From: an uncultured Sphingobacteriales bacterium
Lineage (GTDB): Bacteria; Bacteroidota; Bacteroidia; Chitinophagales; Chitinophagaceae
Length of the DNA: 64,000 nucleotides
Assembly: GCA_937991535.1 (NCBI GenBank)
Contig: CALKHN010000013.1
Coordinates: 1-64,000, forward strand
Direction: 5' to 3'
Shown: piece after piece, positions 3,381 to 22,681 of the stretch
Position numbering within the stretch: the first letter of the stretch is position 1
Layout of the letters: every line of letters starts with the position of its first letter
The notes under the pieces: model-generated
Seen by the model: the letters and a program-made list of their open reading frames with translations, nothing else
Told to the model about the DNA's origin: nothing
Databases searched by the model: none
Translations under genes and position numbers: made by a program

Positions 3381-3494
3381 CTTTGTTGCATTTAAAAATT
3401 AGAATAAAATTCCAACCCTATGGAGGCATTTTATTATAAGGCGGGAACATACCACTTACAGTTGTAACTTTGCACAGCATTAAATTGTTATTGT

Positions 3495-4109: not shown

Positions 4110-4167
4110 CCAGGTTCGGCATGCCCGTGTAATATCATTTAAATGCTATTTTTCTAAACAAAAAGAT

Positions 4168-4584: not shown

Positions 4585-4601
4585 AAAATTGAAATGGACA
4601 T

Positions 4602-5624: not shown

Positions 5625-5739
5625 CAATTAAATAAAATGCCGGCTGTTACGTTTAACTGTAAATGGTATGACATTTGCAAAAGAAGGTTATCCTTAAGTC
5701 CTTCACAAGAAGCCCCTGATACCATTTTAATTAAACGCA

Positions 5740-6168
5740 ATGGATAAAAAAACACTTATCAACTCTAAGGACGGAAGAACAGTAAGATACAGGGAACAGG
5801 ACCCTCTTGTAATGGTAGTAGATAACGACCCCGACACCATAGTGTTGATTTCCGCTTTGTTAAAAAACATGGGATATAGAGTGATAGAAGCATCGAATGG
5901 CGAAAAAGCATTGAAGCTATTGGGAGCGTATAGCCCTGAAATAATTTTCATGGATGTGAATATGCCCGTTATGGATGGATATACGGCTGCCAGACACATC
6001 CGGCAAATGCCCGCTCCCTTCCATTCAATTCCTATTATTGCCCTGGTGGCAGATGCCGGGAGATCAGATTATGAAAAATGCAGGGCGGTGGGCATGGACG
6101 ATTATATTTCAAAGCCTTTCCGACTGGAAGAAATTCAGGGGAAATTAAATCTTCCTCCGGCAGCATAG
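5740..6168 (+). CDS. Stand-alone response regulator receiver domain protein
   Basis: Receiver-domain acidic pocket (VVDND...D), conserved MDGY and K. No output domain. Confidence 0.8.
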   Translation: MDKKTLINSKDGRTVRYREQDPLVMVVDNDPDTIVLISALLKNMGYRVIEASNGEKALKLLGAYSPEIIFMDVNMPVMDGYTAARHIRQMPAPFHSIPIIALVADAGRSDYEKCRAVGMDDYISKPFRLEEIQGKLNLPPAA

Positions 6169-6230
6169 TTTTACCTTGCAACCTTTTGCGCCGGTAATCG
6201 TCAATAATATGTTCACTTTTTAATAGCCAA

Positions 6231-6524
6231 ATGACCACAACACAAAAGCAACCATCTATATTGATTTGTATTATAATGGACTTACTTGGGTATGCCAGTT
6301 ATGCCCTGCCGTTTTTAGGTGAATTTGGAGATATAATTTGGGCTCCTGTATCAGGATTAATCTTTTATAAATTATTTGGTGGGTGGAAAGGTGCGACAGG
6401 CGGCATTTTTAATTTCGTAGAGGAGCTTTTTCCGGGTCTGGACTTTATCCCCAGTTTTACGATAATGTGGCTCATTAAATTCCTTGGCAAAAAGCAACAG
6501 ATTAAATCTATCCAACCCATATAA
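6231..6524 (+). CDS. Small membrane protein (DUF4112-like)
   Basis: 97 aa with two hydrophobic helices. Resemblance to DUF4112 is from memory only. Confidence 0.45.
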   Translation: MTTTQKQPSILICIIMDLLGYASYALPFLGEFGDIIWAPVSGLIFYKLFGGWKGATGGIFNFVEELFPGLDFIPSFTIMWLIKFLGKKQQIKSIQPI

Positions 6525-6560
6525 AGCTACGGCGCTTCAATTTGGTTGAAGCGCTATTTT

Positions 6561-7220
6561 TTACCCCAAAAACCAGTACGCCATCCATTGACTTAAAAAG
6601 CCTGCAATCAATCCAAATACAATATCTCCCATCCGGTGATCGGAAACAATAAGACGTGAGGTACAGATTAGTCCTGAAATAAAAATGGCAATTGCCAGGG
6701 GAATATTTACAAAACCGGAAGAAGTATATAACAGTACAGTAAATAAACCCATTAAACCGCCGGCGCCTGTTGCATGCATGCTTATTTTAAAAAAAATATT
6801 CGCAACAAAATCAATGATCACAGCAAGAAAAATACCAAGGCTCATTTGAGCCATAATTACGGGTATACCCGGTTTATTCCTAAACACATAAAAGGTCCAG
6901 AAAAAAAAGACCATACTTATGGCATACAGTATAATCCTTTCTTTCTGTGTTTTGAGATAAACAGACTGAACGAAACCCAATGCTTTACATAAAAGCACAG
7001 ATAACAGAGGAAAAAAGATACTATTAATAATATAAATAAAAAGCACCTGCGTTTTCGCCAGTACATTCATTCCAATAAAATATTCGGGATCAATGTAAAC
7101 AAGGTAAATGGCCATATATAATCCAACCAGCAATGGATGGAAAAGCCAGGAAATAAAATGAGCGCCTGTTCTTACCACCGGTAATACAGTGGCGGTATCA
7201 GGCGCAAAGTGGCTATTCAT
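6561..7220 (-). CDS. PAP2 superfamily phosphatase (membrane)
   Basis: Multi-TM protein with the motifs SMHATGAG (PSGH-like) and SRLIVSDHRMGD (SRx5Hx3D). Confidence 0.6.
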   Translation of the reverse strand: MNSHFAPDTATVLPVVRTGAHFISWLFHPLLVGLYMAIYLVYIDPEYFIGMNVLAKTQVLFIYIINSIFFPLLSVLLCKALGFVQSVYLKTQKERIILYAISMVFFFWTFYVFRNKPGIPVIMAQMSLGIFLAVIIDFVANIFFKISMHATGAGGLMGLFTVLLYTSSGFVNIPLAIAIFISGLICTSRLIVSDHRMGDIVFGLIAGFLSQWMAYWFLG

Positions 7221-8701
7221 AATTGTTTTCTTAAGCGTGCTACCGGAATATTCATCTGTTCCCGGTATTTGGCTACTGTTCTCCGGGCAATATTATATCC
7301 TTTCTGTTGCAGCAATTCTGTAAGCCGTTCATCACTCAGCGGTTTTTTCTTGCTTTCTCCTTCTACCATATCACTTAATATTTTCTTTACCTCCCGTGTA
7401 GAAACTTCTTCACCACTGTCTGTACTCAAAGATTCGCTAAAAAAGAATTTAAGCCGGTATGTACCAAATTCTGTTTGTACAAATTTGCTGTTCGCCACCC
7501 GGCTTACCGTGGAAATATCCAATCCCGTACGTTCGGCAATATCTTTTAAAATCATCGGCTTTAACGTGGTTTCATCACCTGTAAGAAAAAATTCATACTG
7601 GTAATCCATTATAGCATGCATGGTAGTAAACAAGGTGTTTTGTCGTTGCTTAATAGCATCAATAAACCACTTGGCAGCATCAATTTTCTGTTTAATAAAA
7701 ATGACCGCTTCTTTCTGCCGTTTATCCTTTTTACTTCCCCGGTCATATTCTTTAAGCATATCTCTGTAACCCTCGCTGATACGCAGATCCGGCGCATTCT
7801 TCGAATTAAGTGTGAGTTCCAGTTTATTGGTATTATTATGAATAAAGAAGTCGGGAATAATATAGCTTTCTCCTTTATTGGTGTCGCCTACATTTCCCCC
7901 TGGTTTAGGATTAAGCCGGATGATTTGATTAATAGCAAGCTTAAGATCTTCGTCTGTCAGGTTTAACCCTCTTTGTATCTTTTCGTAATGTTTTTTGGTA
8001 AACTCATCAAAGTAATCCGAAAGTATACTGATCGCAATATCCACTTCCCGGCCGTCTTGTCTTTTCCGTTCCAACTGCAACAGAAGGCATTCTCTTAAAT
8101 CCCGTGCACCTATTCCGGGCGGATCAAACCGCTGTATCTCTTTTACCAGCAAAGCTATTTCTTCTTCAGTAGCAGCAATATTCTGCCGGAAAGCCAAATC
8201 ATCTGTAATGGCTCCAAAATCTCTTCTTAAATATCCGTCATCATCTATACTTCCCACTATATGCTCCGCAATTTTTCTTTGCTTTTCATCCAAATTCAGC
8301 ATACTGAGCTGTTCCAGCAAAGATTCATGAAAAGTACTTTCAATTTTAAAGGGCAGTGTTTGTTTTTCGTCAATTTCCGGGTAGTTCTCGTCTTTCAACC
8401 TGTAATCAGCTACATCATCATCTTCGCCCACATATTCACTTATATCAATATTATCATATTCATCCTCACTGCCTTCTGCCTCAAAATCGTCCTCTTTATC
8501 ACTTTCAAATTCATCAATCAGTTCTCCCTCGCCGGCATCGTTGTCTTCCTCATTTGCCTCAAGCGCAGGATTTTCTTCCATCTCTTCTTTAATTCTTTCT
8601 TCAAGGTTGGCAGTAGGAACCTGCAGCAATTTCATGAGTTGAATTTGCTGGGGTGATAGTTTTTGTAACAGCTTTTGTTGTAAACTCTGACTCAGAGCCA
8701 T
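7217..8701 (-). CDS. rpoN: RNA polymerase sigma-54 factor RpoN
   Basis: C-terminal RpoN box ARRTVAKYREQMNIP, an acidic region and a Gln-rich N-terminus. Start chosen at MALSQSLQQKL (ATG at 8701) rather than the ORF-track start at 8761. Confidence 0.9.
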   Translation of the reverse strand: MALSQSLQQKLLQKLSPQQIQLMKLLQVPTANLEERIKEEMEENPALEANEEDNDAGEGELIDEFESDKEDDFEAEGSEDEYDNIDISEYVGEDDDVADYRLKDENYPEIDEKQTLPFKIESTFHESLLEQLSMLNLDEKQRKIAEHIVGSIDDDGYLRRDFGAITDDLAFRQNIAATEEEIALLVKEIQRFDPPGIGARDLRECLLLQLERKRQDGREVDIAISILSDYFDEFTKKHYEKIQRGLNLTDEDLKLAINQIIRLNPKPGGNVGDTNKGESYIIPDFFIHNNTNKLELTLNSKNAPDLRISEGYRDMLKEYDRGSKKDKRQKEAVIFIKQKIDAAKWFIDAIKQRQNTLFTTMHAIMDYQYEFFLTGDETTLKPMILKDIAERTGLDISTVSRVANSKFVQTEFGTYRLKFFFSESLSTDSGEEVSTREVKKILSDMVEGESKKKPLSDERLTELLQQKGYNIARRTVAKYREQMNIPVARLRKQL

Positions 8702-9170
8702 AGTCGAATATATAATTATTGGAAACCCCGTAAATAATTTGAAAAAATGATGCGCCTCCACAAAAATCAGGCCGTAAATTTAAGTACAAAACGTATTAAC
8801 ATCACTTATATCGCTTTGTTTTATTTGGATGTTAACAATTCTTTCTTATTTGAACCGGTCATTTCATCACTTTAACCGGACTGGCATCACCTTGCAAAAG
8901 ACAACCGGAGGGAACAAACCAGGGTTGAAGCAATACGCGATAATAAGCATTTCCAACCTACATTTTACAATTGTATGATCACCCAGCTAACACTAAATTT
9001 CTTCTTCTGCCGTTTATTTAAAAAAGGAGTTTTGTAATTGACCGGCATTTCCGTATGCACCTAAAACCGGTTCTTTTATTTTTGAGCAAACATTTAATTT
9101 TAGCGTGGAAATTTTATATTTAGGCCTGGCACTTTTGAATGTATAAACCCGATGCTGTAAATAACAGATT

Positions 9171-9941
9171 ATGAACCCGAGGCCGCTTGCAAACATATCT
9201 ATACTGCTGGTAGAAGACAACGAAATGAACACGCTTTTAGCGTCAGCTATAATACAGGGAACTGGTGCAAAAGTTACGGAAGCCGACAATGGTATGGATG
9301 CTGTACAACTTTTGCGAAACCGCCCTTTTGACCTGGTATTAATGGATTTGCATCTGCCGGTAATGGATGGGTTTGAAACAACGAGGTACATCAGAAAAAA
9401 TCTTTCCCAAACCATTCCCATAATCGCTATAACCGCCAATGTAGTTAATGGAGAAGAAGAAAAATGTTTAGAAGCCGGGATGAACGGATTTATTTCAAAG
9501 CCTTATACAGAAAAAGATTTGCTTGATAAAATTTCAACCTGTATTCCTTTTAAAAATGGTATGGCCGAAAAATTTGTTCCAGCAACTGCTAACCCGGACG
9601 CTGCTCTTTACAGCCTGTCTTTCCTTAAAGATGTTAGTAAAGGAAACCGGGATATATTGCAACAAATGATTCTTGTGTTTACTGAACAGGTGTCTTTGGC
9701 GGTAAATGAGCTAAAAATTGCGTATAACAGTCACAGTTACGGTGAAATGTATGCTATTGCACATCGCATAAAGCCTGATATTGATAATCTGAATATAACT
9801 TCGCTGAAAGACAATATCAGGGAAATTGAGGTGTTTGCAGAACAAAAGAAGGATGGGCCGCTCCTTAAAAATCTTATTGTTAACCTGGATAATACAATTC
9901 AGCAAGTAGTGAAGGAATTAAAAGTAAATGTGCTGTTATAG
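9171..9941 (+). CDS. Response regulator receiver domain fused to a C-terminal HPt (histidine phosphotransfer) domain
   Basis: Receiver motifs (LLVEDN, MDLHLPVMDG, K105) plus an HPt-like helix with AIAHRIKPD. Confidence 0.7.
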   Translation: MNPRPLANISILLVEDNEMNTLLASAIIQGTGAKVTEADNGMDAVQLLRNRPFDLVLMDLHLPVMDGFETTRYIRKNLSQTIPIIAITANVVNGEEEKCLEAGMNGFISKPYTEKDLLDKISTCIPFKNGMAEKFVPATANPDAALYSLSFLKDVSKGNRDILQQMILVFTEQVSLAVNELKIAYNSHSYGEMYAIAHRIKPDIDNLNITSLKDNIREIEVFAEQKKDGPLLKNLIVNLDNTIQQVVKELKVNVLL

Positions 9942-10025
9942 CAATCTCCCCTTCCAGGCATAAGATTTAGTCTGGCAATTGCGTTATTACATTCTTTTAT
10001 CTATATTTATTGAATATTCATTTTT

Positions 10026-10862
10026 ATGAACGAGTTCGATAAGCTTAATGATGAAGAACGCCTGAAAGCAGAAAACGAATTTCTGAAAATGAAGCTTATG
10101 CTGGAAAACGGCGCCGAATTTCAAAAAACAGAAGATGGCGCCCACCTGTCTCCGCAGATAGAAAACGAATTTCTTAATTATATCCAGGCATTTGAGAAGC
10201 AATCCCAAAATCCAAAGTATATCAAAGTTTTTGATAAGATAGGGCGGCCAACTCAGTTTAAGCCGGTATCAGAAATACCTGATGATGAGATAGGCGAGGC
10301 CTGGGAAATGCTGCAGGAATATTTACACCAGTACCATATCAGCTTAAGCGCATGCAGCCCTAATATTTGTGTGCGTGAATTATATCGCTTTACCACCGAA
10401 GAATTGTTTGACCATGAAATGAGTGATATGGATATACCCGGTATAACGCATGGATTTATTTATGATGAATTTTACCCCGATCACCAGTACGATAATACCA
10501 GATATGCTGTTGATGACTGCATAGCATGCATACTTAAAAAAACGCCGTTTGACTATATGCCCTGCTTCCGGAACGAGAACCTCCGGCTAAACAATCATTA
10601 TCCACTTTCAGAAGATGGATTTAAATTGCTGGTGAACAGGTTTAAAGAAGCATACGATACAATGGAAGATATTGAAATCAGCAATGGGTTGTGTACCATC
10701 AACGACAAGGCCTGCATTGTAAAAGGCAACTATGCATTAACCGCATCAGTACACAATGATGCGGAAAACTTAAAAGGAAACTGGGAAGTTTGTTTTGAGT
10801 TGAATGAAGAATTCGGCTATTGGTATGTTTGGAATGTACAAATAGAAGGCATTCATTTTTAA
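10026..10862 (+). CDS. Hypothetical protein
   Basis: 278 aa ORF with no recognisable motif. Confidence 0.4.
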   Translation: MNEFDKLNDEERLKAENEFLKMKLMLENGAEFQKTEDGAHLSPQIENEFLNYIQAFEKQSQNPKYIKVFDKIGRPTQFKPVSEIPDDEIGEAWEMLQEYLHQYHISLSACSPNICVRELYRFTTEELFDHEMSDMDIPGITHGFIYDEFYPDHQYDNTRYAVDDCIACILKKTPFDYMPCFRNENLRLNNHYPLSEDGFKLLVNRFKEAYDTMEDIEISNGLCTINDKACIVKGNYALTASVHNDAENLKGNWEVCFELNEEFGYWYVWNVQIEGIHF

Positions 10863-10914
10863 CGGCAGGGAATTTGTGTTTGTACAACCCCCGTGGCTTG
10901 TTGTTCTGTTGTAA

Positions 10915-11847
10915 CTAAGGCTTCAATCCTTTCAAAAATCCACTGATCAGTTGTAGTGCATTCGTTATTACCTGCTCATTACCTACCGGTATTTTTAAAT
11001 AGGTTTGACCTGAAACCCCATCCTTCTCCGTTAGTTTGTCAACGAGTTGCTTTGTACTTTCGGGGTTGCTGAGCGATTCTGCCAGTTGCTCAAAAAAAGA
11101 AAAGCCTGTTTGAATAACCTGGTCTTCGGCAGATACGGCTTTTGTCTTTTCCTGTTCCGGCTCAGGAATATCGCCCGTTATTTCACGGGTAAACAACTCC
11201 TGTTGTGCGGGTGCGGTAGTCATTTCTTTCTCCGCGTTCCTTTCCGCGTTTTCCGATATGGATTGTTCCGTTGCACCAGGTATCCCGCCGGTAACCGATT
11301 CAACCGATTGCATAAACCGGTTGAATTTTTGTCCGCCCAGGAAAATATTATTATCGCCGGCATCGGTTGAAAGAAACACCCTGCAGGCAGGATCATTATT
11401 GAAATGTGCAAACAGGTCCTGCCTGTTTTTGGAGGGTATGCTGCCATGAAGGTATTGATATCCGATTCCTTTGTCGGTAAGCATTTGCGCTACCAGCCTT
11501 GTCATCCGTTCCCACTGACTGAATATTACTACTTTTTCTTCCTTCATGTCAATGATCTCATCTAATATATTTTCCAGTTCGTCTAACTTGGTTTGGTAAT
11601 TGGTTTCCTGGTCAATAATATAGGTGCTGTCGCAAACCATACACATCATGTTCAGGTTGTTCAGCAAACGCTGCCTGTCTTCTTTCTTCAGGAACTTCAT
11701 TCTTTTCCACTTATGCACCAACTTGGCTACGATCTCTCTAAATTCGTCATGCATTTGCATTTGCTCGTCCGTTATGGGGATAAGCAGGTTTTTATCCATG
11801 CGGGAGGGCAGTTCTTTCAGCACTTCTTTTTTGGTACGCCGCAGCAT
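10915..11847 (-). pseudogene. Decayed fragment of an SNF2-family helicase (C-terminal helicase domain only, frameshifted)
   Basis: LRRTKKEVLKELP and FSQWERM...YLHGSIPSKNRQDLFAHFNNDP match SNF2 helicase-C motifs. They are paralogous to the intact gene at 46825..50589. The N-terminal ATPase half is absent. After FLSTDAG the expected GGVGLNLTAAD/DRxHRIGQ motifs are lost, and an alternative frame shows IIFSW..NRLNRL remnants. Confidence 0.6.
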
Positions 11848-12233: not shown

Positions 12234-12446
12234 TTTAAGTGAAGTTATAAAATAAAAATGCTGAAGTCTTTAGAACATAAACGATTTACGATTCCAATGC
12301 GGAATACACAGCTATCATTATCTGTACGCTATTGGCATGTGCAGGCGAACAACAGCATTGTGCCTGCAGGCAATAAAGAGGATAGCAAACATAAACGACC
12401 GTGGTATAACTATACCTAGCCTGTATTTAACAGGCACAATGAAAGG

Positions 12447-12480
12447 AACCCGGTTGCAGTAAACGACCGGGTTTTTTGTT
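12447..12480 (+). terminator. Rho-independent terminator (AACCCGGT-11nt-ACCGGGTT + T6)
   Basis: 8 bp stem followed by TTTTTT, immediately upstream of the tRNA array. Confidence 0.65.
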
Positions 12481-12489
12481 GAATTACAA

Positions 12490-12561
12490 GGTTCGCTGGT
12501 GTAACGGTTAACATCACAGATTGTCGATCTGTTGCTATGGGTTCGATTCCCGTGCGAACCG
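12490..12561 (+). tRNA. tRNA-Asp (anticodon GTC)
   Basis: Acceptor GGTTCGC/GCGAACC. D-arm GTGT..ACAT. Anticodon stem ACAGA/TCTGT with loop TTGTCGA. T-loop TTCGATT. No encoded CCA. Confidence 0.7.
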
Positions 12562-12566
12562 CTGAA

Positions 12567-12639
12567 TGTTGGATGGTGCAATGGTTGAGCATTTCAGCAT
12601 TTGAAGCTGAAGATGCTGGTTCGAGTCCGGCTCCAACAA
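12567..12639 (+). tRNA. tRNA-Gln (anticodon TTG)
   Basis: Acceptor TGTTGGA/TCCAACA. Anticodon stem TCAGC/GCTGA with loop ATTTGAA. T-arm GCTGG-TTCGAGT-CCGGC. Confidence 0.7.
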
Positions 12640-12646
12640 CAAAACG

Positions 12647-12720
12647 TAGGCTTTAGCTTAACCGGTAAAGCGCCACACTGCGAATGTGGAGAAATGAGTT
12701 CGGGTCTCAAAGTCAACCAA
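12647..12720 (+). pseudogene. Degenerate tRNA-like element (Arg-like, anticodon GCG) without a convincing acceptor stem
   Basis: Good D-arm GCTT-AACCGGTA-AAGC. Anticodon stem CCACA/TGTGG with loop CTGCGAA. T-loop TTCGGGT. No 7 bp acceptor pairing could be found. Confidence 0.3.
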
Positions 12721-12742
12721 TGCGACCTGGTGTAAGGCAATA

Positions 12743-12815
12743 TGGCCCGTAGCTCAATGGTTAGAGTATCCGGCTTTTAACCGGAGGGTTGTGAGTTCGA
12801 GTCACGGGGCCAACG
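12743..12815 (+). tRNA. tRNA-Lys (anticodon TTT), with irregular acceptor/T-arm
   Basis: TAGCTCAATGGTTAGAG D-arm. Anticodon stem TCCGG/CCGGA with loop CTTTTAA. The 3' acceptor strand CGGGGCCA carries an extra G relative to the 5' strand TGGCCCG. Confidence 0.5.
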
Positions 12816-12817
12816 AT

Positions 12818-12890
12818 GGACGAATAGCTCCAATGGCAGAGCATTGGTTTGAAGCACCAACTGTGCCGCTTCGAATCCGGTTTCGTCCAC
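12818..12890 (+). tRNA. tRNA-Phe (anticodon GAA)
   Basis: Perfect acceptor GGACGAA/TTCGTCC. D-arm GCTC..GAGC. Anticodon stem TTGGT/ACCAA with loop TTGAAGC. T-loop TTCGAAT with a C-C mismatch closing the T-stem. Confidence 0.7.
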
Positions 12891-12926
12891 ACAGAAAAAG
12901 ATTTTAAATACCGGTTAAGGCATAAA

Positions 12927-13412
12927 ATGGAACAACAGCAAAAATGGAGGAAATTATCCGGCGATAGCATTCAACAGCCGATTGAAGACGAAATAAGAAC
13001 TGTGATCATAAGAGAAAAAGAGATGGGGCATTCTTTAAAAGTATGCATTGGTACCGACAGCCAGGTAAAGGGCAGGGAAACTGAATTTGCCACTGTTATT
13101 GTTTTCATCCGGAAGGGCAGAGGCGGCTTCATGTATATACACAATGAAGTCACTGAACAAAAAATGAGCATCAAACAGCGGATGTTGCTCGAAGTGGCAA
13201 AAAGTATTGAAGTAGCTTATGCACTGTGCAGGATTTTTACTTTGTACAATGTAGATATGGAAGTACATGCTGACATCAACACCAATCCAAACTTTAAAAG
13301 CAATGATGCATTGAAGGACGCGATGGGGTATATTATGGGAATGGGTTTTGCGTTTAAGGCGAAACCGGAAGCGTTTGCAAGTTCAAGCTGTGCTAATAAA
13401 GTGGTGCAGTAG
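12927..13412 (+). CDS. RNase H-like YkuK family (DUF458) protein
   Basis: IGTDSQ motif, ~160 aa. The pattern TVIVF..KGRGG...HADINTNP...GF.FKAKPEAFASS matches my memory of YkuK/DUF458. The start was moved to the ATG at 12927 because the ORF-track start at 12849 overlaps tRNA-Phe. Confidence 0.55.
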   Translation: MEQQQKWRKLSGDSIQQPIEDEIRTVIIREKEMGHSLKVCIGTDSQVKGRETEFATVIVFIRKGRGGFMYIHNEVTEQKMSIKQRMLLEVAKSIEVAYALCRIFTLYNVDMEVHADINTNPNFKSNDALKDAMGYIMGMGFAFKAKPEAFASSSCANKVVQ

Positions 13413-13452
13413 AAATTGTCAATCCACTACTGGAAGTCTTGTTAATGCGAAT

Positions 13453-13650
13453 CACTCCTTAGCATAAAAGGAAGTGCTACAGAAAAAGTTACGGAGCCGC
13501 GGAGTGCCCGGAAGATGCCGTTCAGACTGTTCGTTTGAATGGACAGAATTTGCAGTTGCACCGAAATGTGAAAGACCAGAGTAGGGAAGCGCATTTACAG
13601 CCGGACTATTGCTACAAAAGAAAATATGGGTTCGAATTCCGTAGGAGTGA
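13453..13650 (+). ncRNA. ~200 nt tRNA-like element: paired acceptor ends, D-arm and T-arm, with a ~125 nt insertion replacing the anticodon arm
   Basis: 5' CACTCCT-TA-GCAT-AAAAGGAA-GTGC (acceptor 5' strand, U8A9, D-arm). 3' ATGGG-TTCGAAT-TCCGT-AGGAGTG-A (T-arm, acceptor 3' strand exactly complementary to CACTCCT, discriminator). Direct repeats GCTACAGAAAAAG / GCTACAAAAGAAAA flank the internal segment. Confidence 0.35.
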
Positions 13651-13917
13651 CAAAAAAATTAAAATAGACTTTACTATGCAAATAGATTGCAAAGTTGTGT
13701 TAGAGGTTTGTTTTGTCAAATAAAAACAATAGTTCTTTAAAATAAAATAAATTCCTTTTCCTCTTTGTAAAGGATGGAGGAGCTTCAAAAGCTTGCTTAA
13801 CGGTAAGATGGGAACCGGCATGTTAGCAGTAAACCGGATGTGTGTTTTAAAAGCATCATAGTGCAGCGGTAGTAACCGGCTGTATGCTGTTGCGCCAATA
13901 TGTATTTCCCACCACAC

Positions 13918-13952
13918 CCTGTGGGCCAGGGGTTCGAGTCCCTTTCCCGCCT
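13918..13952 (+). pseudogene. tRNA 3'-fragment (anticodon-stem 3' strand, T-arm AGGGG-TTCGAGT-CCCTT, acceptor TCCCGCC)
   Basis: Seen directly. No complementary 5' acceptor strand lies upstream. A D-arm-like GTGCAGCGGTAGTAAC lies ~40 nt upstream. Confidence 0.4.
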
Positions 13953-13954
13953 CA

Positions 13955-14014
13955 GGTGGGATAGCTCAGCGGTTAGAGCAACAGGCAATTGCGGGTTCGA
14001 ATCCCGCTCCCGCT
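13955..14014 (+). ncRNA. 60 nt mini-tRNA-like element lacking the anticodon arm
   Basis: GGTGGGA-TA-GCTCAGCGGTTAGAGC-AACAGGCAATT-GCGGG-TTCGAAT-CCCGC-TCCCGCT. Acceptor pairs with two G·U, canonical D-arm and T-arm, 11 nt linker instead of the 17 nt anticodon arm. Confidence 0.4.
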
Positions 14015-14018
14015 GAAA

Positions 14019-14060
14019 AGCGGGATAGTTCAATGGTAGAACACAACACTTCAGATGTTG
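14019..14060 (+). pseudogene. tRNA 5'-fragment with UCA (opal-reading) anticodon, no T-arm or 3' acceptor
   Basis: AGCGGGA-TA-GTTC-AATGGTA-GAAC-A-CAACA-CTTCAGA-TGTTG. The 5 bp anticodon stem is perfect and the loop is CTTCAGA, so positions 34-36 read TCA. Downstream sequence has no T-loop. Confidence 0.4.
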
Positions 14061-14371
14061 GGTAAAGAAGTACACCGCTTCTTAAAAAATGGTGACAACG
14101 TAAAGTAAGGATTGTTTATCGGCCGGTTTATAAAAGTGAATATGTTGTAAAGCATATTTACAGCAAAAATCCGGCAAGCCGGGAAATAGCCAGTATGTTC
14201 TGATTATAATAATGAGCAGCAACACATTTTCTTACATCGTTTTTCTGCTTTTGGGCAGGTAAAAGGTAAGAAACGGTATTGATTAACATTATATAACACA
14301 ACATCCGTTATTGAAGGTGATAAACAATCCGGACTTTAATATTACAAAAGACGATTTTAAAAGATATACTG

Positions 14372-15475
14372 ATGAAAAATGTAAAAGTAACCGCCTACCA
14401 GGTTGGATTGGTTTTTAAAAATGGCGTGTATCAGCGAATGCTGAATAAAGGAAGCTACTGGTTCTGGAGCAATGAAACCGTGCAGTTGTTTGATATAACC
14501 AAACCATTCAACGCACCAGTGGAATTGAATATATTGTTGAAAGATGCTGCACTTGCTGAGGCATTGCTTGTGCTGGATGTAAAAGACAATGAAATCGCTT
14601 TACATTATAAAAACGGTTTGCTGGAAGCAGTATTCGGTGCTGGTCGTTATGCCTTTTGGAAAGGCGCTGTTGAGTATAAATTCATAAAGGCAGATATTGG
14701 AAAGGTTGAGATCACTGAACCTGTAGACCGTACGGTATTGTTACATCGTTTGGTTGCTCCATTTGTTCGTAGCGTAAGTGTGGAAAGCTTTGAAAAGGCT
14801 GTATTGTTTGTTGATGGGAAATTTGTGCAGATTTTGCAGAGTGGCGTTTATTACTGGTGGAAGAACAGCATAGCAGTGCATGTGGGTAAGGTAGATGCCC
14901 GTCAGCAGCAACTGGAAATAAACGGACAGGAAATTCTGACCAAAGATAAAGCGGCATTGCGCATCAACGCCTGGGCGCAATATCAGGTAACTGATATTGA
15001 AAAGGCCTTGCTGCAAAACAAAGAATACGACAGGCAATTGTATGTGGCATTTCAACTTGCATTGCGGGAATATGTCGCCGGCTTTGGATTTGATGAATTG
15101 CTGGAGAAAAAAGAAGCCATTACCCCTTTCATTTTGCAAAGTATACAGAAAAACGCTGAAGCATTGGGTATATTGGTGAATGGCTTCGGTATCCGTGATA
15201 TCATATTGCCGGGCGATGTAAAGGAGATCATGAACCAGGTATTGATCGCTGAAAAGAAAGCGCAGGCAAATACCATCATGCGGCGGGAAGAAACTGCCTG
15301 CACCCGTAGCTTGCTGAATACTGCCAGGCTGATGGAAGAAAATGCGATGTTGTGGAAGCTGAAAGAAATGGAATATGTAGAAAAGATCGCGGACAAGATC
15401 AGCAATATCAGCGTGAGCGGAAACGGCGTATTGATTGAGCAGTTGAAGGATATCTTTGTACCGAATAAACAGTGA
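14372..15475 (+). CDS. SPFH/band-7 (slipin-like) domain protein
   Basis: C-terminal half matches the SPFH pattern (ILTKDKAALRINAWAQYQV...RDIILPGDVKEIMNQVLIAEKKAQAN). No N-terminal TM helix. Confidence 0.7.
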   Translation: MKNVKVTAYQVGLVFKNGVYQRMLNKGSYWFWSNETVQLFDITKPFNAPVELNILLKDAALAEALLVLDVKDNEIALHYKNGLLEAVFGAGRYAFWKGAVEYKFIKADIGKVEITEPVDRTVLLHRLVAPFVRSVSVESFEKAVLFVDGKFVQILQSGVYYWWKNSIAVHVGKVDARQQQLEINGQEILTKDKAALRINAWAQYQVTDIEKALLQNKEYDRQLYVAFQLALREYVAGFGFDELLEKKEAITPFILQSIQKNAEALGILVNGFGIRDIILPGDVKEIMNQVLIAEKKAQANTIMRREETACTRSLLNTARLMEENAMLWKLKEMEYVEKIADKISNISVSGNGVLIEQLKDIFVPNKQ

Positions 15476-15479
15476 TTAT

Positions 15480-15508
15480 GGTTGCCAACCTTTAGAAGGT
15501 TGGCAACC
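15480..15508 (+). terminator. Perfect 11 bp inverted repeat GGTTGCCAACC-tttagaa-GGTTGGCAACC (hairpin, no U-tract)
   Basis: Seen directly, 4 nt after the SPFH stop codon. Could be a terminator, an RNA processing site or a protein-binding palindrome. Confidence 0.4.
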
Positions 15509-15570
15509 ATTCAATAAAATTGTGCACGGATATTAATAGCTTAGATATTTCAAAATAAAACGCTTGCATA

Positions 15571-16767
15571 ATGATTAATATAGAGGATAAGACCCAGAAT
15601 GAAATGGGCGAATTGATTACAATATTTCAAAGTTGTTGTGAATTTCATTTTACAAATAGATTTAATGAGCATAAATTTCTTTTTTTTGACGCGCTTCCCT
15701 TTGACAATTTGGGAACAAAATATAGTACGGAATTAGTTAGCAGAAGATTTAGTTGGAAAGGAACTCCCACTATTGTTAGGAAAATACATAAAGGCATAGA
15801 TGCAAAAGAGGGCGAAGAGGAATATAAATTTGAACAGAAATGTTGCGTAGATTACTCTTTCAAAATAGGTTCAATTATTTGTTCTCTAGTCAATAATAAA
15901 GAGCTGACGTTTATTGCTACTACATTTAGTCCTTTTGGAGTAACGTTTTTCCCCTCATTTCATGAATGTCAAACTCAAGTGTTAGATTATTTAACTGAAA
16001 ATAAGATCGAACTAAAAAAACAACTAAATCTCCTACATATTGACGAACAAGAATATGATAATTCGAATATTGGAGCTGCGTTTTTTACCAATGTAATTAG
16101 GAAGCAGCGAATAAACAAGCAAAGTAACAATGGAATAAGCCATTTAAATTATTATTTTGAAATAGCGAATTGTCATTGGCAAATCGAAGACTGTCTCTTA
16201 AAGGCCGCTTATTATTTTAAATATACAACTGATTTTTTATCAAAGAGAATTGATGAAAACGATGTTACCTTTTTTATGCCAACCATGAACAATTATGATA
16301 ATCAATATCTGCTTTATATAGGGTTCGGCTTTGAAAGAATCTATAGTTTTTGGGACAGAATGGCTATTCTATTGCACAACTTTGAGAATTTAAACCTTAA
16401 ACAAAAAAATCTGTCTTTTGATCGTTATATGCAAGGTTTTAAAAAAACAAATAATTGTAATCTGAATAAAAATTCTCAATATTCCTTATGGCTACAAGAA
16501 TTTTATGAAAAGTCATTTAAGCCAATGATTGAATATCGCCATAGGATTGTGCATTTTCAATTCACTCATGATTGGGCAGGAATATTAACCGCCAAGTTTA
16601 GTAGTATCGCACAAGAAAACATTACAAATAAAAATAGATTAGTAGAATTAAAAAAGGAATTCGAAGGGCTTCTTAAACTTTTACATGATAATTACTTGCG
16701 CTGTAAAGAAGGCTTCGTAAATGTGCTGAAATTAATAGACGAGATACAATTGTCTATATTAACATAA
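15571..16767 (+). CDS. AT-rich hypothetical protein with C-terminal Rx4H motif (HEPN-like candidate)
   Basis: 398 aa ORF visibly more AT-rich than its neighbours. C-terminal MIEYRHRIVHFQ contains R-x4-H preceded and followed by helical-looking segments. No other recognisable domain. Confidence 0.35.
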   Translation: MINIEDKTQNEMGELITIFQSCCEFHFTNRFNEHKFLFFDALPFDNLGTKYSTELVSRRFSWKGTPTIVRKIHKGIDAKEGEEEYKFEQKCCVDYSFKIGSIICSLVNNKELTFIATTFSPFGVTFFPSFHECQTQVLDYLTENKIELKKQLNLLHIDEQEYDNSNIGAAFFTNVIRKQRINKQSNNGISHLNYYFEIANCHWQIEDCLLKAAYYFKYTTDFLSKRIDENDVTFFMPTMNNYDNQYLLYIGFGFERIYSFWDRMAILLHNFENLNLKQKNLSFDRYMQGFKKTNNCNLNKNSQYSLWLQEFYEKSFKPMIEYRHRIVHFQFTHDWAGILTAKFSSIAQENITNKNRLVELKKEFEGLLKLLHDNYLRCKEGFVNVLKLIDEIQLSILT

Positions 16768-16770
16768 TGT

Positions 16771-17535
16771 GTGCATATGAAAAATATAATAACAGCATTA
16801 TCTGAAATCGGACAAAAGAAAAACATCAAAATACTTCACGCCTGCGAAACAGGTAGCAGGGCGTGGGGTTTTCCTTCGCCGGATAGCGATTATGATGTGA
16901 GGTTTATTTATATGCATGAGCGGGATTGGTATCTGTCCCTAAGTCAGCGCAAAGACACGATAGAATATATGGATGACGATCTGGACATAACAGGCTGGGA
17001 TCTGAAAAAATGTCTGAATTTGTTAAAGAAATCAAATGTCCCACTGATAGAACGGTTTCAGTCTCCGTTTGAATATTATGCAGTGCCGGGATTTAAGGAC
17101 GAGTTTAAAAAGTTGATAGAAAGTTATTATTCGCCAACGGCGGTTTTCTTTCATCACTATTCATTAGCCCATAAGTTTTGGGAGGACATGATAGGAAAGG
17201 ATGATTTTAAATTGAAAGGCTTTTTTTACCTGGTGCGGTCTTTACTTTCCTGCAACTGGATCATGCATGACAAAACTGTATTGCCCATGCATATAGAAGG
17301 ATTGATGCGGTACTCGGATGAAAAAATCAATACCCCGCTAAGGGAATTGGTGCAATTGAAGTTAGGTGTAGGCGAAAAATATCTTCATAGCAAAGACAGT
17401 GTAATGGAAGTATGGATATTGCAATTATTGGAAAAGCTGGAAATATCAAAACAAAAACTTGGTGTAAACCAAACTGATATGTCGTTATTAAATGAATTCT
17501 TTTTAAAAATGCTGTATGCAAAAGCTGACTATTGA
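16771..17535 (+). CDS. Pol-beta superfamily nucleotidyltransferase (COG3541 / RtcB-associated 'RlaP'-like)
   Basis: GSRAWGFPSPDSDYDVRF motif (G[S]x9-13DxD NTase signature). 3 nt from the previous gene and overlapping the next. Confidence 0.65.
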   Translation: MHMKNIITALSEIGQKKNIKILHACETGSRAWGFPSPDSDYDVRFIYMHERDWYLSLSQRKDTIEYMDDDLDITGWDLKKCLNLLKKSNVPLIERFQSPFEYYAVPGFKDEFKKLIESYYSPTAVFFHHYSLAHKFWEDMIGKDDFKLKGFFYLVRSLLSCNWIMHDKTVLPMHIEGLMRYSDEKINTPLRELVQLKLGVGEKYLHSKDSVMEVWILQLLEKLEISKQKLGVNQTDMSLLNEFFLKMLYAKADY

Positions 17536-18595
17536 CTGGATAAAAGATAATGGGTTATTGGTATTTGAAGCCATCACCGGTAGTCGGGCGTATGGGTTGG
17601 ATACTCCAAAATCTGACACAGATATTAGAGGAGTATTTGTATTACCCAAAAATATGTTTTATGGATTGGAATATACCGGGCAGGTTAATAATGCTACCAA
17701 TGATATTGTGTACTATGAATTGAAAAGATTTATAGAGTTGCTTTCAAAAAACAACCCGAATATACTGGAAATGCTGAATACACCAGAAAGCTGCGTATTG
17801 CAAAAACATTCAATAATGGACGGGATGAAGCCTGCACTTTTTCTGTCTAAGCTGTGCAAGAAAACTTTTGCTAACTATGCTTATACACAAATAAAAAAAG
17901 CATATGGATTGGAAAAGAAGATAGTGAATCCTGTGGGCGAAGAAAAAAAATCGGTATTGGATTTTTGTTTTGTGCATGAGGAGAATGAAGCTGTAGGATT
18001 AAAAGAATATATGAAGGAGAAAAATTTACGCCAAGAGAAAATGGGATTGACTGCTATAGCACATATGCGGGATTGCTACAATTTGTTTTATTCGGATGAC
18101 TTGCCATATTCCGGTATAATGAGAAAGGAAGAGTCGAATGAAGTATGCTTGAGCAGTGTACCCAAAAATGAAAAGCCCATAGCTATGCTTTATTTTAACA
18201 AGGATGGCTACTCAGTATACTGTAAGAAATACAAAGAATACTGGGGGTGGGTAGAAAAAAGAAGCGAGGAGCGATATCAAACAACCATGACCCATGGCAA
18301 GAATTATGATTCAAAAAGCATGATGCATGTATTCAGATTATTATTGATGGCAAGGGAAATAGCTACAGAAAGAAGGGTCAATGTTTGGCGGAAAGACAGG
18401 GAATTCCTGTTATCTATAAAAGAAGGAAAATTTGAGTACGATGAATTGTTGCAAAAAGCAGAAGCCTTAAAAGATGAGTTGCCAATCTTATATCAAAATT
18501 CGGATTTGAAAGCAGAACCGGATATTGACGTAATTGATGCCCTATTAATAAAAATGAGAGGAATGTATTACAATGAAGTAAAGGATCATCAGTGA
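17516..18595 (+). CDS. Pol-beta superfamily nucleotidyltransferase, paralog of the preceding gene
   Basis: GSRAYGLDTPKSDTDIRGV motif. 359 aa. Start overlaps the upstream gene by 20 nt. Confidence 0.65.
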   Translation: MQKLTIDWIKDNGLLVFEAITGSRAYGLDTPKSDTDIRGVFVLPKNMFYGLEYTGQVNNATNDIVYYELKRFIELLSKNNPNILEMLNTPESCVLQKHSIMDGMKPALFLSKLCKKTFANYAYTQIKKAYGLEKKIVNPVGEEKKSVLDFCFVHEENEAVGLKEYMKEKNLRQEKMGLTAIAHMRDCYNLFYSDDLPYSGIMRKEESNEVCLSSVPKNEKPIAMLYFNKDGYSVYCKKYKEYWGWVEKRSEERYQTTMTHGKNYDSKSMMHVFRLLLMAREIATERRVNVWRKDREFLLSIKEGKFEYDELLQKAEALKDELPILYQNSDLKAEPDIDVIDALLIKMRGMYYNEVKDHQ

Positions 18596-18748
18596 GCCGA
18601 AACCCCGAACGGAGCGTCGCAACAAAAGTACGATCAGTGCTCAAAAGCTGGTACAAAAAATCATAAAGTCACAAAAACTCCGGGCTCACAAAACAGCCCT
18701 TTGTGTTACCCCGTGTTATGTGCCTCCGTGGTTCAAAAAAGAAAAACA

Positions 18749-20188
18749 ATGAGCAAATTAAAAATAACAGGAAAAGAATTACGCGCTACCGGCTACCCGC
18801 AGGGCCCGGTGATCAGCGTGGCAATGAATGTGATGCAGAAACATTACAAGCATCACACAAAAGAGAAAGTGATGGAAATATTGAAGCGTGTATTGGAAAG
18901 CCCGGTACAATATAAAGATGATGTCGTATTGGCAGTGATAGCGGAGCAATTATTGCCCAAAGCGCCAAAAGAGGACGCAACAATTTCATTGAACAACCAG
19001 GGTATTCCGTTCAATGTATTCGGACAGGAACACATTGAAGAAGGCGCCCTGCACCAGATGTATGTCGCGGCTAAATTGCCGGTGGCAGTTGCGGGCGCAT
19101 TGATGCCTGATGCACACAGCGGTTATGGCTTGCCGATAGGCGGTGTTCTGGCAACGGATAACGCCGTGATACCGTATGGCGTGGGAGTGGACATTGGCTG
19201 CCGCATGTGCCTGAGTGTTTTCGATATCAATCCAAAAGAGCTTACGCAGCGGGAAACTTCTTTTGCAAGGGAATTAAATGAAGCCACCCTTTTTGGAAGC
19301 GGCGCACAGTTTGACCGGGCATCAGATCATGAAGTAATGGAACATGCCGCATTTTATGAAATGCCTTTGCTGAAAAGTTTGCACGAACGCGCATGGAAAC
19401 AATTGGGATCTTCCGGAAGTGGCAATCATTTCGTGGAGTTTGGCATAGTGGATATTGCAGAAAAGGATCCGGTACTGGGCATTGAACCCGGAAGTTATGT
19501 GGGATTGTTATCGCATTCCGGTTCCAGGGCGCTGGGTGCTACTATTGCAAATCATTATACTAAAATTGCGATCAGCAAAAGACGTTTACCACAGGATGCA
19601 AAAAATCTGGCGTGGTTGAATATGGATGAAGAAGCAGGAATAGAATACTGGATCGCCATGAACCTGGCGGGTGATTATGCTTCTGCATGTCATCACATTA
19701 TTCACGAAAAAATTTCGAAACAGTTAGGACGTAAACCTCTTAAGAGGATAGAGAATCACCACAACTTTGCATGGAAGGAACAATGGGAAGGTAAGGAGGT
19801 AATTGTACACCGTAAAGGCGCTACACCTGCCGGAAAGGATGTATTGGGCATCATTCCCGGCTCTATGACAGCGGATGGGTATATTGTAAAAGGGAAAGGC
19901 GAACCGGCGGCTGTTAACTCGGCTTCCCACGGCGCAGGAAGGTTGATGAGCCGTACCAGAGCAATGCAGTCCATTACCGAAAATGCATTGAAGCAGGAAC
20001 TGAAAAAGCATAGCGTGAAGCTGATCGGCGGAGGGCTGGATGAAGCGCCTTTCGCCTATAAGGATATTCATGTGGTAATGCAAAGTCAGCGGCAGTTGGT
20101 AGATGTGGTGGGAAGATTCACTCCCAGAATCGTAAAAATGGACGGCGCAAAGCATAAAACATGGGGAAAGAAGACAAGAGAAATGTAG
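18749..20188 (+). CDS. rtcB: RNA-splicing ligase RtcB (3'-phosphate/5'-hydroxyl RNA ligase), long form (~479 aa)
   Basis: NHHN (IENHHNFAWKE), SHGAGR (ASHGAGRLMSR) and several His/Cys metal ligands. The ORF-track start is a TTG at 18701. The ATG at 18749 (MSKLKITGKEL) is preferred. Confidence 0.9.
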   Translation: MSKLKITGKELRATGYPQGPVISVAMNVMQKHYKHHTKEKVMEILKRVLESPVQYKDDVVLAVIAEQLLPKAPKEDATISLNNQGIPFNVFGQEHIEEGALHQMYVAAKLPVAVAGALMPDAHSGYGLPIGGVLATDNAVIPYGVGVDIGCRMCLSVFDINPKELTQRETSFARELNEATLFGSGAQFDRASDHEVMEHAAFYEMPLLKSLHERAWKQLGSSGSGNHFVEFGIVDIAEKDPVLGIEPGSYVGLLSHSGSRALGATIANHYTKIAISKRRLPQDAKNLAWLNMDEEAGIEYWIAMNLAGDYASACHHIIHEKISKQLGRKPLKRIENHHNFAWKEQWEGKEVIVHRKGATPAGKDVLGIIPGSMTADGYIVKGKGEPAAVNSASHGAGRLMSRTRAMQSITENALKQELKKHSVKLIGGGLDEAPFAYKDIHVVMQSQRQLVDVVGRFTPRIVKMDGAKHKTWGKKTREM

Positions 20189-21284: not shown

Positions 21285-21397
21285 ATCCGTTCTTTTAATT
21301 ATACAAAGTTCAAATTCCTGGACACAAAGGCCAAACAGAATTCCAGAAATACACGGACTGCTATTATTTTGAAATGATTGTAATTAACTTTACCATT

Positions 21398-22681
21398 ATG
21401 CAAATTGACAAACTCTATCAATTGTTTCTTCAATATCCTTCGGTTCAGACAGATACCAGGAAGCTAAAAAAAGATGATATTTTTTTCGCGTTAAAAGGCC
21501 CGAATTTTAATGGCAATCTTTTTGCAAAGCAGGCGCTTGAAAAAGGCGCCGCGTATATAATAGTAGACGAGCCGCCCGGTTTTAAAGATAAAAGGATCAT
21601 ACTTGCGGATGATGTGCTAACTACGCTGCAGCAACTGGCAGGCTACCACCGTGGTCAGTTTGCCATTCCTTTTTTGGCTATTACGGGAAGCAATGGCAAA
21701 ACCACCACTAAAGAACTGGTTCATGCAGTGCTTTCATCCACCTATAAAACTTATACAACCCGGGGAAACCTTAACAACCATATAGGAATACCGCTTACCA
21801 TCCTGGATATTAAGCCTGATGCAGAAATGGGGATCATTGAAATGGGTGCTAACCATCTTAAAGAGATTGAAGGTTACTGCAAATACACCGAACCTACACA
21901 TGGTATTATTACCAATTGCGGAAAAGCGCACCTTGAAGGTTTTGGAAGCATAGAAGGGGTTAGAAAGGCCAAAGGCGAACTGTATGATTACCTGAAACTC
22001 CACGACGGCACAGCCTTCGTAATGTGGGATTATGATTACCTGAGGGAAATGAGCAAAGGCATACCTCACATTTTTACCTATGGAACTTCGGGATCTGAAG
22101 TAGTAGGTGATATATATGCAACAGATCCTTTTTTGGAAGTGGTCTTAATGAAAAAAAACGCAAAGGCTATCATCCGTTCTGCTCTGGTTGGAGATTATAA
22201 CCTTCCAAATATACTTGCTGCCGTAGCTGCAGGCAGATATTTTAATGTTAAGGAAGATAAAATAAAAGCAGCCATTGAAGCATACCATCCATCCAACAGC
22301 AGGTCTCAATTAATACATAAAGGAAATAATAAAATTATTTTAGACGCTTATAATGCCAACCCCAGCAGCATGAAAGCAGCTATAGAAAATTTTGCGGGAA
22401 CCGCAGGCAGCAATAAGATACTTGTATTGGGCGCTATGATGGAATTAGGAAAAGAAAGCATAAAAGAACATGAAGACCTTACGGAACTGCTAAAGCATTA
22501 TTTATGGAAAGAAGTAATATTGGTTGGTGGCGATTTTGCCTTTATCACACATCCTTTCAGGTTTTTTAATACCGCACAGGAAGCAAGAGAGTGGCTCTTG
22601 CAACACCCGGCAGAAAATAGTGTATATCTTGTAAAAGGATCACGCAGCATGCAGATGGAGATCATTGCGGATGCATTATGA
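21398..22681 (+). CDS. murF: UDP-N-acetylmuramoyl-tripeptide--D-alanyl-D-alanine ligase MurF
   Basis: ITGSNGKTTTKE P-loop. Mur ligase middle and C-terminal domain patterns. Confidence 0.85.
   Translation: MQIDKLYQLFLQYPSVQTDTRKLKKDDIFFALKGPNFNGNLFAKQALEKGAAYIIVDEPPGFKDKRIILADDVLTTLQQLAGYHRGQFAIPFLAITGSNGKTTTKELVHAVLSSTYKTYTTRGNLNNHIGIPLTILDIKPDAEMGIIEMGANHLKEIEGYCKYTEPTHGIITNCGKAHLEGFGSIEGVRKAKGELYDYLKLHDGTAFVMWDYDYLREMSKGIPHIFTYGTSGSEVVGDIYATDPFLEVVLMKKNAKAIIRSALVGDYNLPNILAAVAAGRYFNVKEDKIKAAIEAYHPSNSRSQLIHKGNNKIILDAYNANPSSMKAAIENFAGTAGSNKILVLGAMMELGKESIKEHEDLTELLKHYLWKEVILVGGDFAFITHPFRFFNTAQEAREWLLQHPAENSVYLVKGSRSMQMEIIADAL

Follow-up and report, generated by a model that had tools for sequence, protein, structure and literature searches.

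The locus described here raises the question of why a set of genes predicted to repair broken RNA should carry among them a gene for a predicted RNase. It lies in a 64,000-nt stretch of DNA from an uncultured Sphingobacteriales bacterium of the family Chitinophagaceae (contig CALKHN010000013.1; this whole stretch is called the window, and all coordinates are window positions). Five intact open reading frames (ORFs) on the plus strand encode a Band-7 protein, an AT-rich 398-aa protein, two nucleotidyltransferases and the RNA ligase RtcB (Table 1). A first-pass annotation had described them as an SPFH gene, an AT-rich gene with a HEPN-like Rx4H motif, tandem paralogous PF10127-type nucleotidyltransferases and rtcB, lying next to tRNA genes and tRNA mimics; the gene order, each of these family guesses and the neighbouring tRNA features are all borne out by the searches reported below.

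By its gene content, the block is the Chitinophagaceae version of the Band-7/tRNA-like-RNA/RlaP/RtcB system, in which RNA repair is itself a prediction. The sequence features that define membership of that system are all present, namely an intact RtcB, an adjoining Band-7 gene, a tRNA-like non-coding RNA (ncRNA) and RlaP (PF10127) nucleotidyltransferases, and the distribution is likewise sporadic, with flanks that differ between genomes. Papers citing the survey of Burroughs and Aravind (2016, NAR) report that it predicted a repair system of Band-7, 'b7a-tRNA', RlaP and RtcB by comparative genomics (10.1101/312249; PMC12776372); hence the backbone is not new. On the account given in those papers, the first-pass theme of RNA damage and RNA repair agrees with the earlier prediction, and the accompanying claim that the gene combination was undescribed has to be dropped. 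Unlike the published system, as the citing papers present it, the window has a HEPN cargo slot before RlaP1, tandem RlaP paralogues, a double permuted ncRNA with a pseudoknot, and a link to a tRNA array and a PF04308 gene. As far as the literature shows, with the 2016 survey judged through its citing papers, these features, found here in Bacteroidota, are apparently new.

The system has been a bioinformatic prediction since 2016, and the b7a-tRNA (band 7-associated tRNA) was without experimental validation, expression included, as of 2018 (10.1101/312249). We found no experiments on the Band-7 or RNA parts in the literature examined. The first biochemistry on RlaP came in a December 2025 preprint, in which a Pseudomonas RlaP adds one or two nucleoside monophosphates to damaged RNA 3'-OH ends in vitro (PMC12776372). 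The window locus and ~50 relatives now give the system a concrete anatomy of two probable transcription units, a ~310-nt ncRNA, an RlaP pair and two cargo slots.

Table 1 Features of the block and its upstream region in the window
Feature	Position	Strand	Evidence
tRNA array, five genes	12490..12890	+	ARAGORN; Rfam tRNA matches 42-61 bits
PF04308 RNase H-like (DUF458) gene	12927..13412	+	Pfam 2.6e-37
Second conserved non-coding element, ~210 nt	13450..13660	+	blastn and RNAalifold
Band-7-associated tRNA-like ncRNA, ~310 nt, ends approximate	13787..14095	+	Rfam, covariation
Band-7/SPFH protein, 367 aa	14372..15475	+	Pfam Band_7 2.4e-30
Perfect 13-bp hairpin after Band-7 stop codon	15478..15510	+	sequence
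Cthe_2314-family HEPN protein, 398 aa, slot A	15571..16767	+	placed through homologues
RlaP1, PF10127 Pol-beta nucleotidyltransferase, 254 aa	16771..17535	+	Pfam 1.8e-66
RlaP2, divergent PF10127 paralogue, 359 aa	17516..18595	+	Pfam 1.1e-26, residues 15-129
Small GC-rich hairpin, position of slot B	18682..18699	+	terminator-like scan
RtcB RNA ligase, 480 aa from probable start ATG 18746	18746..20188	+	Pfam RtcB 5.7e-82

The RtcB and RlaP proteins of the block have intact catalytic motifs. RtcB aligns with the Pyrococcus horikoshii enzyme (E 4e-31) through the GVDIGC, GSGNHF, HSGSR, HHN and HGAGR motifs, and its metal-binding and nucleophile motifs are all intact. The ORF is listed from TTG 18701, and homologues align from residue 1-2 of the product of ATG 18746, so that ATG is probably the start. 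RlaP1 and RlaP2 both retain the Pol-beta GS...DxD signature (G28-S29 and D40/D42 in RlaP1; G22-S23 and D34/D36 in RlaP2). They are distant paralogues with 32% identity over a 73-residue catalytic core (E 4e-10), and in RlaP2 the PF10127 match is limited to the N-terminal core. The two ORFs overlap by 20 nt, and the likely start of RlaP1 is ATG 16777. No solved structure matches either RlaP protein by sequence, and an NCBIfam scan of the five block proteins added nothing to their Pfam families. PF10127 is titled 'RNA repair pathway DNA polymerase beta family' in Pfam; the name RlaP was coined by Burroughs and Aravind (2016), according to a citing paper, owing to its co-encoding with RNA ligases (PMC12776372). 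RlaP has been proposed to replace nucleotides lost by endonucleolytic cleavage, prior to ligation (PMC7824862, PMC6514570), and restoration of this type has been proposed for RloC-type damage (PMC7824862).

A search with RlaP1, keeping one genome per species, gave 44 loci, nearly all of them from Chitinophagaceae, onto which the window proteins were mapped (numbers of related loci are prefixed L). The conserved order is tRNA array, PF04308 gene, one or more ncRNAs, Band-7, slot A, RlaP1, RlaP2, slot B and RtcB, where slot A runs from the Band-7 terminator to RlaP1 and slot B from RlaP2 to RtcB. RlaP2 follows RlaP1 in 43 of the 44 loci, RtcB lies downstream in 36 (seven of the other eight have a contig end within ~1.2 kb), and Band-7 lies upstream of RlaP1 in 23. 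An arrangement that recurs in dozens of genomes cannot reasonably be put down to chance. The operon is also present in the cultured organisms Terrimonas ginsenosidimutans NA20 and Ferruginibacter sp. SUN106. The closest relative of the window locus, an 8.4-kb contig carrying P0110 from JGI sample 3300048101 that was read from its genes and not from its DNA, has a 96% identical Band-7 protein and, downstream, the same gene for an aldo-keto reductase. Its genes run PF04308, Band-7, a 239-aa Cthe_2314 HEPN gene and RtcB, with no RlaP genes; an additional 256-aa gene follows RtcB.

A variant of the operon has a 355-386-aa AAA ATPase that replaces or joins Band-7 (L009, L013, L014, L019, L020, L021, L023, L030 and L038). 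It is also seen at L051:5107-7259, and L051 and L052 add an adjacent divergent gene for a WYL-domain regulator.

The AT-rich gene at the front of the RlaP pair has a GC content of 0.29-0.31 (0.302, against 0.405 in its flanks, in the direct comparison). Its product comprises a ~190-aa N-terminal part without a family match and a C-terminal, predicted helical HEPN domain, in which the Rx4H motif reads RHRIVH (R323-H328, encoded at 16537-16554). Placement in a family rests on homologues, because the 398-aa protein itself matched no family model. Close homologues, of 68-80% identity, number only four among 5.8 billion protein clusters. Two of these, at 79% and 71% identity, score 28.1 and 27.8 bits against PF18730 (HEPN_Cthe2314), for which the gathering cut-off is 27.1, and the one at 68% identity is named 'Cthe_2314 family HEPN domain-containing protein' by NCBI. 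An exhaustive profile search of 1.84 billion clusters returned 102 family representatives at E <=1e-3. The 29 members that were aligned share 15-80% identity with the window protein and have just three invariant columns, among them R323 and H328; PF18730 is matched by 10 of the 29, at best with 3e-09. On this homology the protein belongs to the Cthe_2314 family (PF18730) of the HEPN superfamily, and its gene is a rare, horizontally acquired, AT-rich cargo encoding a predicted RNase. None of the outcomes that the first-pass annotation had named as fatal to its proposal, namely unrelated nucleotidyltransferases, an AT-rich gene with no HEPN fold and an unconserved RtcB neighbourhood, turned up: the nucleotidyltransferases are RlaP, the AT-rich gene falls by homology in a HEPN family, and related loci retain partners of RtcB.

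Outside repair operons, Cthe_2314 relatives are single genes in defence-type contexts. Stand-alone members neighbour a PIN/UPF0175 toxin-antitoxin pair or a type III restriction-modification (R-M) system, and another follows a helix-turn-helix (HTH) gene and lies beside type I HsdR and GmrSD. Searches of JGI metagenome contigs, IMG/VR, phage records and plasmids gave no close relatives of the HEPN protein. The HEPN survey of 2013 gives 'None detected' as contextual associations for the Cthe_2314 family (Anantharaman et al., PMC3710099). The window gene resembles the stand-alone HEPN abortive infection (Abi) RNases of the AbiV and AbiD/F type and other Cthe_2314 members in its invariant Rx4H motif within a C-terminal, predicted helical domain, in being rare, AT-rich and horizontally mobile, and in having relatives in defence islands. 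Unlike them, it sits co-directionally at the head of an RNA-repair operon.

Comparison of the loci identifies the HEPN gene as variable slot A cargo and not as a conserved operon member. The partners that RtcB keeps in relatives are the RlaP pair and Band-7, and not HEPN. Slot A is empty (<=210 bp) in 14 of the 23 Band-7 loci. Elsewhere it holds a Cthe_2314 HEPN gene (the window; L003/L004, 79% identity; L018, 37% identity with the motif RHKSVH), HEPN_AbiV (L005, 6.3e-12), a 358-aa protein with the motif RNKVIH and weak DUF3644/HEPN_Swt1 matches (L022), DinB_2 (L009, L012, L014, L028, L042 and L051), DUF5677 (L028), or apparently unrelated content such as PurU, an ABC ATPase and a second tRNA array (L032 and L029). 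Whatever its content, slot A cargo is always AT-richer than its own flanks. A link to HEPN was sought for slot proteins of 269-272 aa (L020, L034 and L051) and none was found. In L026, the slot may contain a partial duplicate of RlaP1.

Slot B is empty in the window. Elsewhere it holds a 175-aa Rv2179c-like DEDD (DEDDh) 3'-5' exonuclease (six loci; PADLOC 'Effector Exonuclease', 2e-38), a minus-strand DUF6169 gene (ten loci), small proteins of 107-129 aa or an AAA ATPase; L005 provides an example, with genes at 12267-12794 (+) and 12817-13338 (-).

On balance we lean towards the reading that the repair operon has time and again taken up RNase genes of the kind whose breaks RtcB is able to seal. 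Cleavage by HEPN RNases needs no metal and yields a 2',3'-cyclic phosphate and a 5'-OH, and ends of this kind are those that RtcB joins. The window HEPN protein, as an Abi-like or stress-activated RNase with tRNA or mRNA as its probable target, would thus generate exactly the substrates of RtcB. The RlaP enzymes would add one or two nucleotides to damaged or trimmed RNA 3' ends, Band-7 and the tRNA-like RNA would act as scaffold or cofactor, and the tRNA array would be a source of replacement or sponge tRNAs. The co-transcribed repair enzymes would then limit this damage or undo it. The toxin-immunity arrangement suggested in the first-pass annotation is plausible as well. A repair operon that makes a self-harming RNase tolerable or reversible in this way would explain why several HEPN families have repeatedly been retained at one position. 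Recurrence, co-orientation, tight spacing and the Band-7, HEPN and RtcB combination of the closest relative favour this coupling and do not prove it.

The main rival, which we think less likely, is that HEPN is an independent Abi-like or selfish gene in a permissive hotspot, with no functional link to Band-7, RlaP or RtcB. In its favour, the gene is AT-rich cargo, other Cthe_2314 members stand alone in defence or mobile contexts, slot B is variable too, and the flanks of the island vary between genomes. Against it, at least three HEPN lineages occupy the one slot, always co-oriented, and a 9-nt gap with no terminator separates the HEPN stop codon from the likely start of RlaP1. Moreover, a hidden Markov model of the Cthe_2314 family, run on all ORFs of 52 related loci (803 kb), matched only the slot A gene of L018; the short HEPN gene of the closest relative is kept directly between Band-7 and RtcB; and classical defence systems of several genes, such as R-M or CBASS, were not seen in the slot.

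Several observations count against a coupling of HEPN to repair, or weaken its premises. HEPN genes occupy slot A in only about 4-6 of ~30 loci, and this low occupancy and the unrelated cargo favour a hotspot; the presence of DinB, PurU and an ABC ATPase in the same position means that the slot may be merely permissive. The ncRNA and Band-7 also occur without RlaP, RtcB or a tRNA array nearby, so the modules are separable. The 398-aa protein itself has no Pfam match even at E 10 and none in NCBIfam or PADLOC, and its AlphaFold models are poor (pLDDT 57-58), making the evidence from fold weak. None of the five block proteins matches a PADLOC defence model.

The short distance between the HEPN gene and a Pol-beta superfamily nucleotidyltransferase, 9 nt downstream, also recalls type VII toxin-antitoxin systems of the HEPN-MNT kind, in which RlaP1 would neutralise HEPN by nucleotidylylation. 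We reject this reading as very improbable. Both nucleotidyltransferases are RlaP proteins of PF10127 and match no MNT family in Pfam, and at 254 and 359 aa they are far larger than MNT antitoxins. At least 36 loci have the RlaP pair and no HEPN gene, the closest relative combines a Cthe_2314 HEPN with RtcB in the absence of RlaP, and RlaP acts on RNA 3' ends in vitro (PMC12776372).

If capture of RNases by the repair operon is taken further, the RlaP-RtcB operon could be a chassis for exchangeable RNases, an extension that we offer as speculation and think rather doubtful. A captured HEPN enzyme, of the Cthe_2314, AbiV or another family, would cleave tRNAs or a tRNA-like decoy during phage attack or stress, and the nucleotidyltransferases and ligase would later restore translation, giving a reversible arrest and not a suicidal Abi response; the Band-7-bound RNA might serve as sensor, decoy or guide. 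The arrangement resembles PrrC or RloC against T4 Pnk-Rnl1 in pairing a tRNA-cutting RNase with healing and sealing enzymes. There, nuclease and repair are encoded in opposing genomes, whereas the window has them in one host operon, where any antagonism would be internal, either self-limiting or reversible. Should HEPN prove to be selected at the operon head, a single genome would deploy nuclease and repair together as a reversible RNA-targeting defence, and the natural pairing could be used to find the substrates of bacterial RtcB and RlaP.

The region upstream of Band-7 contains two stretches (13955-14015 and 14025-14083) that match the Rfam tRNA model with 45.9 and 31.1 bits and go unrecognized by ARAGORN, and the tRNA mimics of the first-pass annotation are here recognizable as parts of one RNA. 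Both modules also match YrlA (RF02553), though 37.3 and 32.3 bits fall short of its gathering score, 69; the match is confined to the tRNA-like module of that model, and the permuted order of T arm, acceptor and D arm is common to both RNAs. Two T-loop motifs, 60-67 nt apart, lie 330-640 nt before the start of every Band-7 orthologue examined, including Band-7 loci without RlaP, RtcB and tRNA arrays. In an alignment of 23 loci folded with RNAalifold, a conserved 5' domain is followed by two modules and a terminal hairpin, with conservation reaching 5' to about 13787. Each module has, in this order, a T arm, a closed acceptor hairpin and a D arm; module 1 adds an open anticodon-type stem and module 2 a full anticodon arm. 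Pairing is retained in 96.9% of cells and 31 of 54 pairs show compensatory changes, against 39-49% and 10-17 compensatory pairs in slid controls. In every sequence, the loop of the terminal hairpin can pair with the 3' tail that lies past an A-rich linker; none of 5,000 permutations reached the observed complementarity, which indicates a pseudoknot. The RNA is therefore a real structured molecule of ~310 nt, strongly supported by covariation, in which the two tRNA-like modules are circularly permuted and a pseudoknot closes the 3' end.

The anticodon loop of module 2 (14058-14064) keeps U33 and a purine at 37, and its 'anticodon' differs by locus (GTT, GAG, GAT, TAG, GAA, TTT, ACG and others; TCA in the window). 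This variation suggests recombination with, or mimicry of, different tRNAs.

The ncRNA and Band-7 constitute the invariant core of the system and, to judge from loci L054-L059, an autonomous module, because at those loci Band-7 orthologues of 83-86% identity and an upstream tRNA-like RNA occur, and RlaP, RtcB and tRNA arrays are all lacking within 7 kb. One of these loci adjoins radical-SAM/SPASM and Sua5 genes. Band-7, whose orthologues NCBI names 'slipin family protein', is predicted to be a scaffold or cofactor partner of the tRNA-like RNA.

This RNA brings in a further alternative, in which HEPN and RtcB would carry out cut-and-rejoin processing of the permuted tRNA-like RNA or the array tRNAs, in the manner of Ire1 and RtcB, for instance in the maturation or rearrangement of permuted tRNA modules, and RlaP would finish the 3' ends. 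RtcB is the tRNA-splicing ligase of archaea and animals, and the KEN domain of Ire1 is a HEPN nuclease. Circularly permuted modules with strong covariation would suit such a role, as would a module 2 anticodon loop that is tRNA-like by rule and variable in identity. We nevertheless consider processing improbable: the ncRNA is found at every Band-7 locus and HEPN at few, the ncRNA-Band-7 module exists without RtcB or RlaP nearby, and differing HEPN families fit poorly with a single conserved processing site.

Another conserved non-coding element separates the PF04308 gene from the Band-7-associated RNA. It has 73-83% identity in ten other loci by blastn, including AAA-type operons without Band-7, and its closing stem (CACTCC...GGAGTG) lies against a T-arm-like hairpin, as in the acceptor/T domain of tRNA and tmRNA. 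RNAalifold gives 46 pairs, 13 of them with compensatory changes; the element has neither an Rfam match nor an ARAGORN call.

The block had been read as a single five-gene unit, and it probably comprises two transcription units, ncRNA-Band-7 and HEPN-RlaP1-RlaP2-RtcB, because the 13-bp hairpin directly after Band-7 is of a kind conserved across loci. Strong hairpins occur 3' of Band-7 in nearly all related loci, many with trailing T runs, and in L008, where slot A is empty, the hairpin sequence is identical to that of the window. The hairpin is probably the terminator of the ncRNA-Band-7 unit. Scans for sigma-70 promoters and terminators gave sites that were not enriched over shuffles, these scans being ill-suited to Bacteroidota promoters, and the hairpin before RtcB comes from a terminator-like scan that yielded no more sites than shuffles. 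About 100 nt 5' of the Band-7-associated RNA is an inverted repeat (13670-13694, +), degenerate in the window, which in relatives reads TGTGCAA-N5-TTGCACA (L005, L022, L026, L027, L028, L032 and L040) and is followed by a conserved TCTTTAAAATA motif. The repeat and the TCTTTAAAATA motif are candidates for the operator and promoter of the ncRNA-Band-7 unit.

Among better-known RtcB loci, the rtcBA(-rsr-yrlBA) systems of E. coli and Salmonella, which are controlled by RtcR and sigma-54, share with the window an RtcB with an intact active site, and the Y RNA YrlA of Salmonella has the same permuted T-arm/acceptor/D-arm topology as the window ncRNA. In Pseudomonas, rtcB and rtcA flank an RlaP gene (PMC12776372). 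Unlike these systems, the block and its examined flanks lack RtcA, RtcR and Ro60 (Rsr), and Band-7 is found in Ro60's place. Their absence had been remarked on in the first-pass annotation: no RtcA or RtcR domain occurs among the proteins scanned from 633-11847 and 12849-20188, and no neighbouring protein matches TROVE/Ro60. Control by sigma-54 and RtcR was considered and rejected on the lack of an RtcR domain and of rpoN near the operon in any related locus; a sigma-54 promoter was not searched for.

The tRNA array comprises Asp-GTC, Gln-TTG, Arg-GCG, Lys-TTT and Phe-GAA genes, five tRNAs in 401 bp. Of the 33 related loci scanned with ARAGORN, 24 have an array of 4-16 tRNA genes, mostly just 5' of the PF04308 gene. 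Some (for example L014:587-2169 and L035:3251-4817) include unusual species such as Ile-TAT, most arrays with an Arg tRNA have ACG where the window has GCG, and the second array within slot A of L029 lies at 8210-8967. Long arrays (L-arrays) have at least 20 tRNA genes at >=2 per kb by the definition of Tran et al. (2015), and arrays of as many as 43 are described in PMC8421152; the window array reaches the density and not the gene number, so it resembles an L-array without qualifying as one. In cyanobacteria, long tRNA arrays adjoin rtcB, are co-regulated with it and have been proposed to supply backup or sponge tRNAs in translational stress (PMC8421152). The likeness lies in an array beside RtcB, which is proposed to repair cleaved tRNAs; unlike the cyanobacterial arrays, those here have five tRNAs in the window and up to 16 in relatives and belong to a different phylum, and the text of the cyanobacterial neighbourhood analysis mentions no Band-7, RlaP or HEPN (PMC8421152).

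The PF04308 gene holds a conserved position between the tRNA array and the ncRNAs. Its ORF is listed from TTG 12849, overlapping tRNA-Phe, and its likely start is ATG 12927; 27 of the 44 loci have a homologue of 63-84% identity upstream of the operon, and these homologues mostly align from query residue 22-33.

The rpoN gene noted upstream in the first-pass annotation is genuine (7217-8761, -). It lies 5.6 kb from the start of the block, and the proximity is unique to the window genome. Other window flank genes (a response regulator, the aldo-keto reductase, ORF 21374-22681 and others) are likewise not near the operon elsewhere, the sole exception being a 278-aa protein in L029. Because the flank genes do not recur in this way, the comparison identifies the island as non-syntenic and the proximity of rpoN as coincidental. 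Just 5' of the tRNA array, a 310-aa ORF (10915-11847, -) corresponds to only the C-terminal half of an SNF2-type helicase (Helicase_C) and gives weak DpdE/ZorD/DrmD-like matches in PADLOC; it looks like the truncated remnant of a defence-type helicase.

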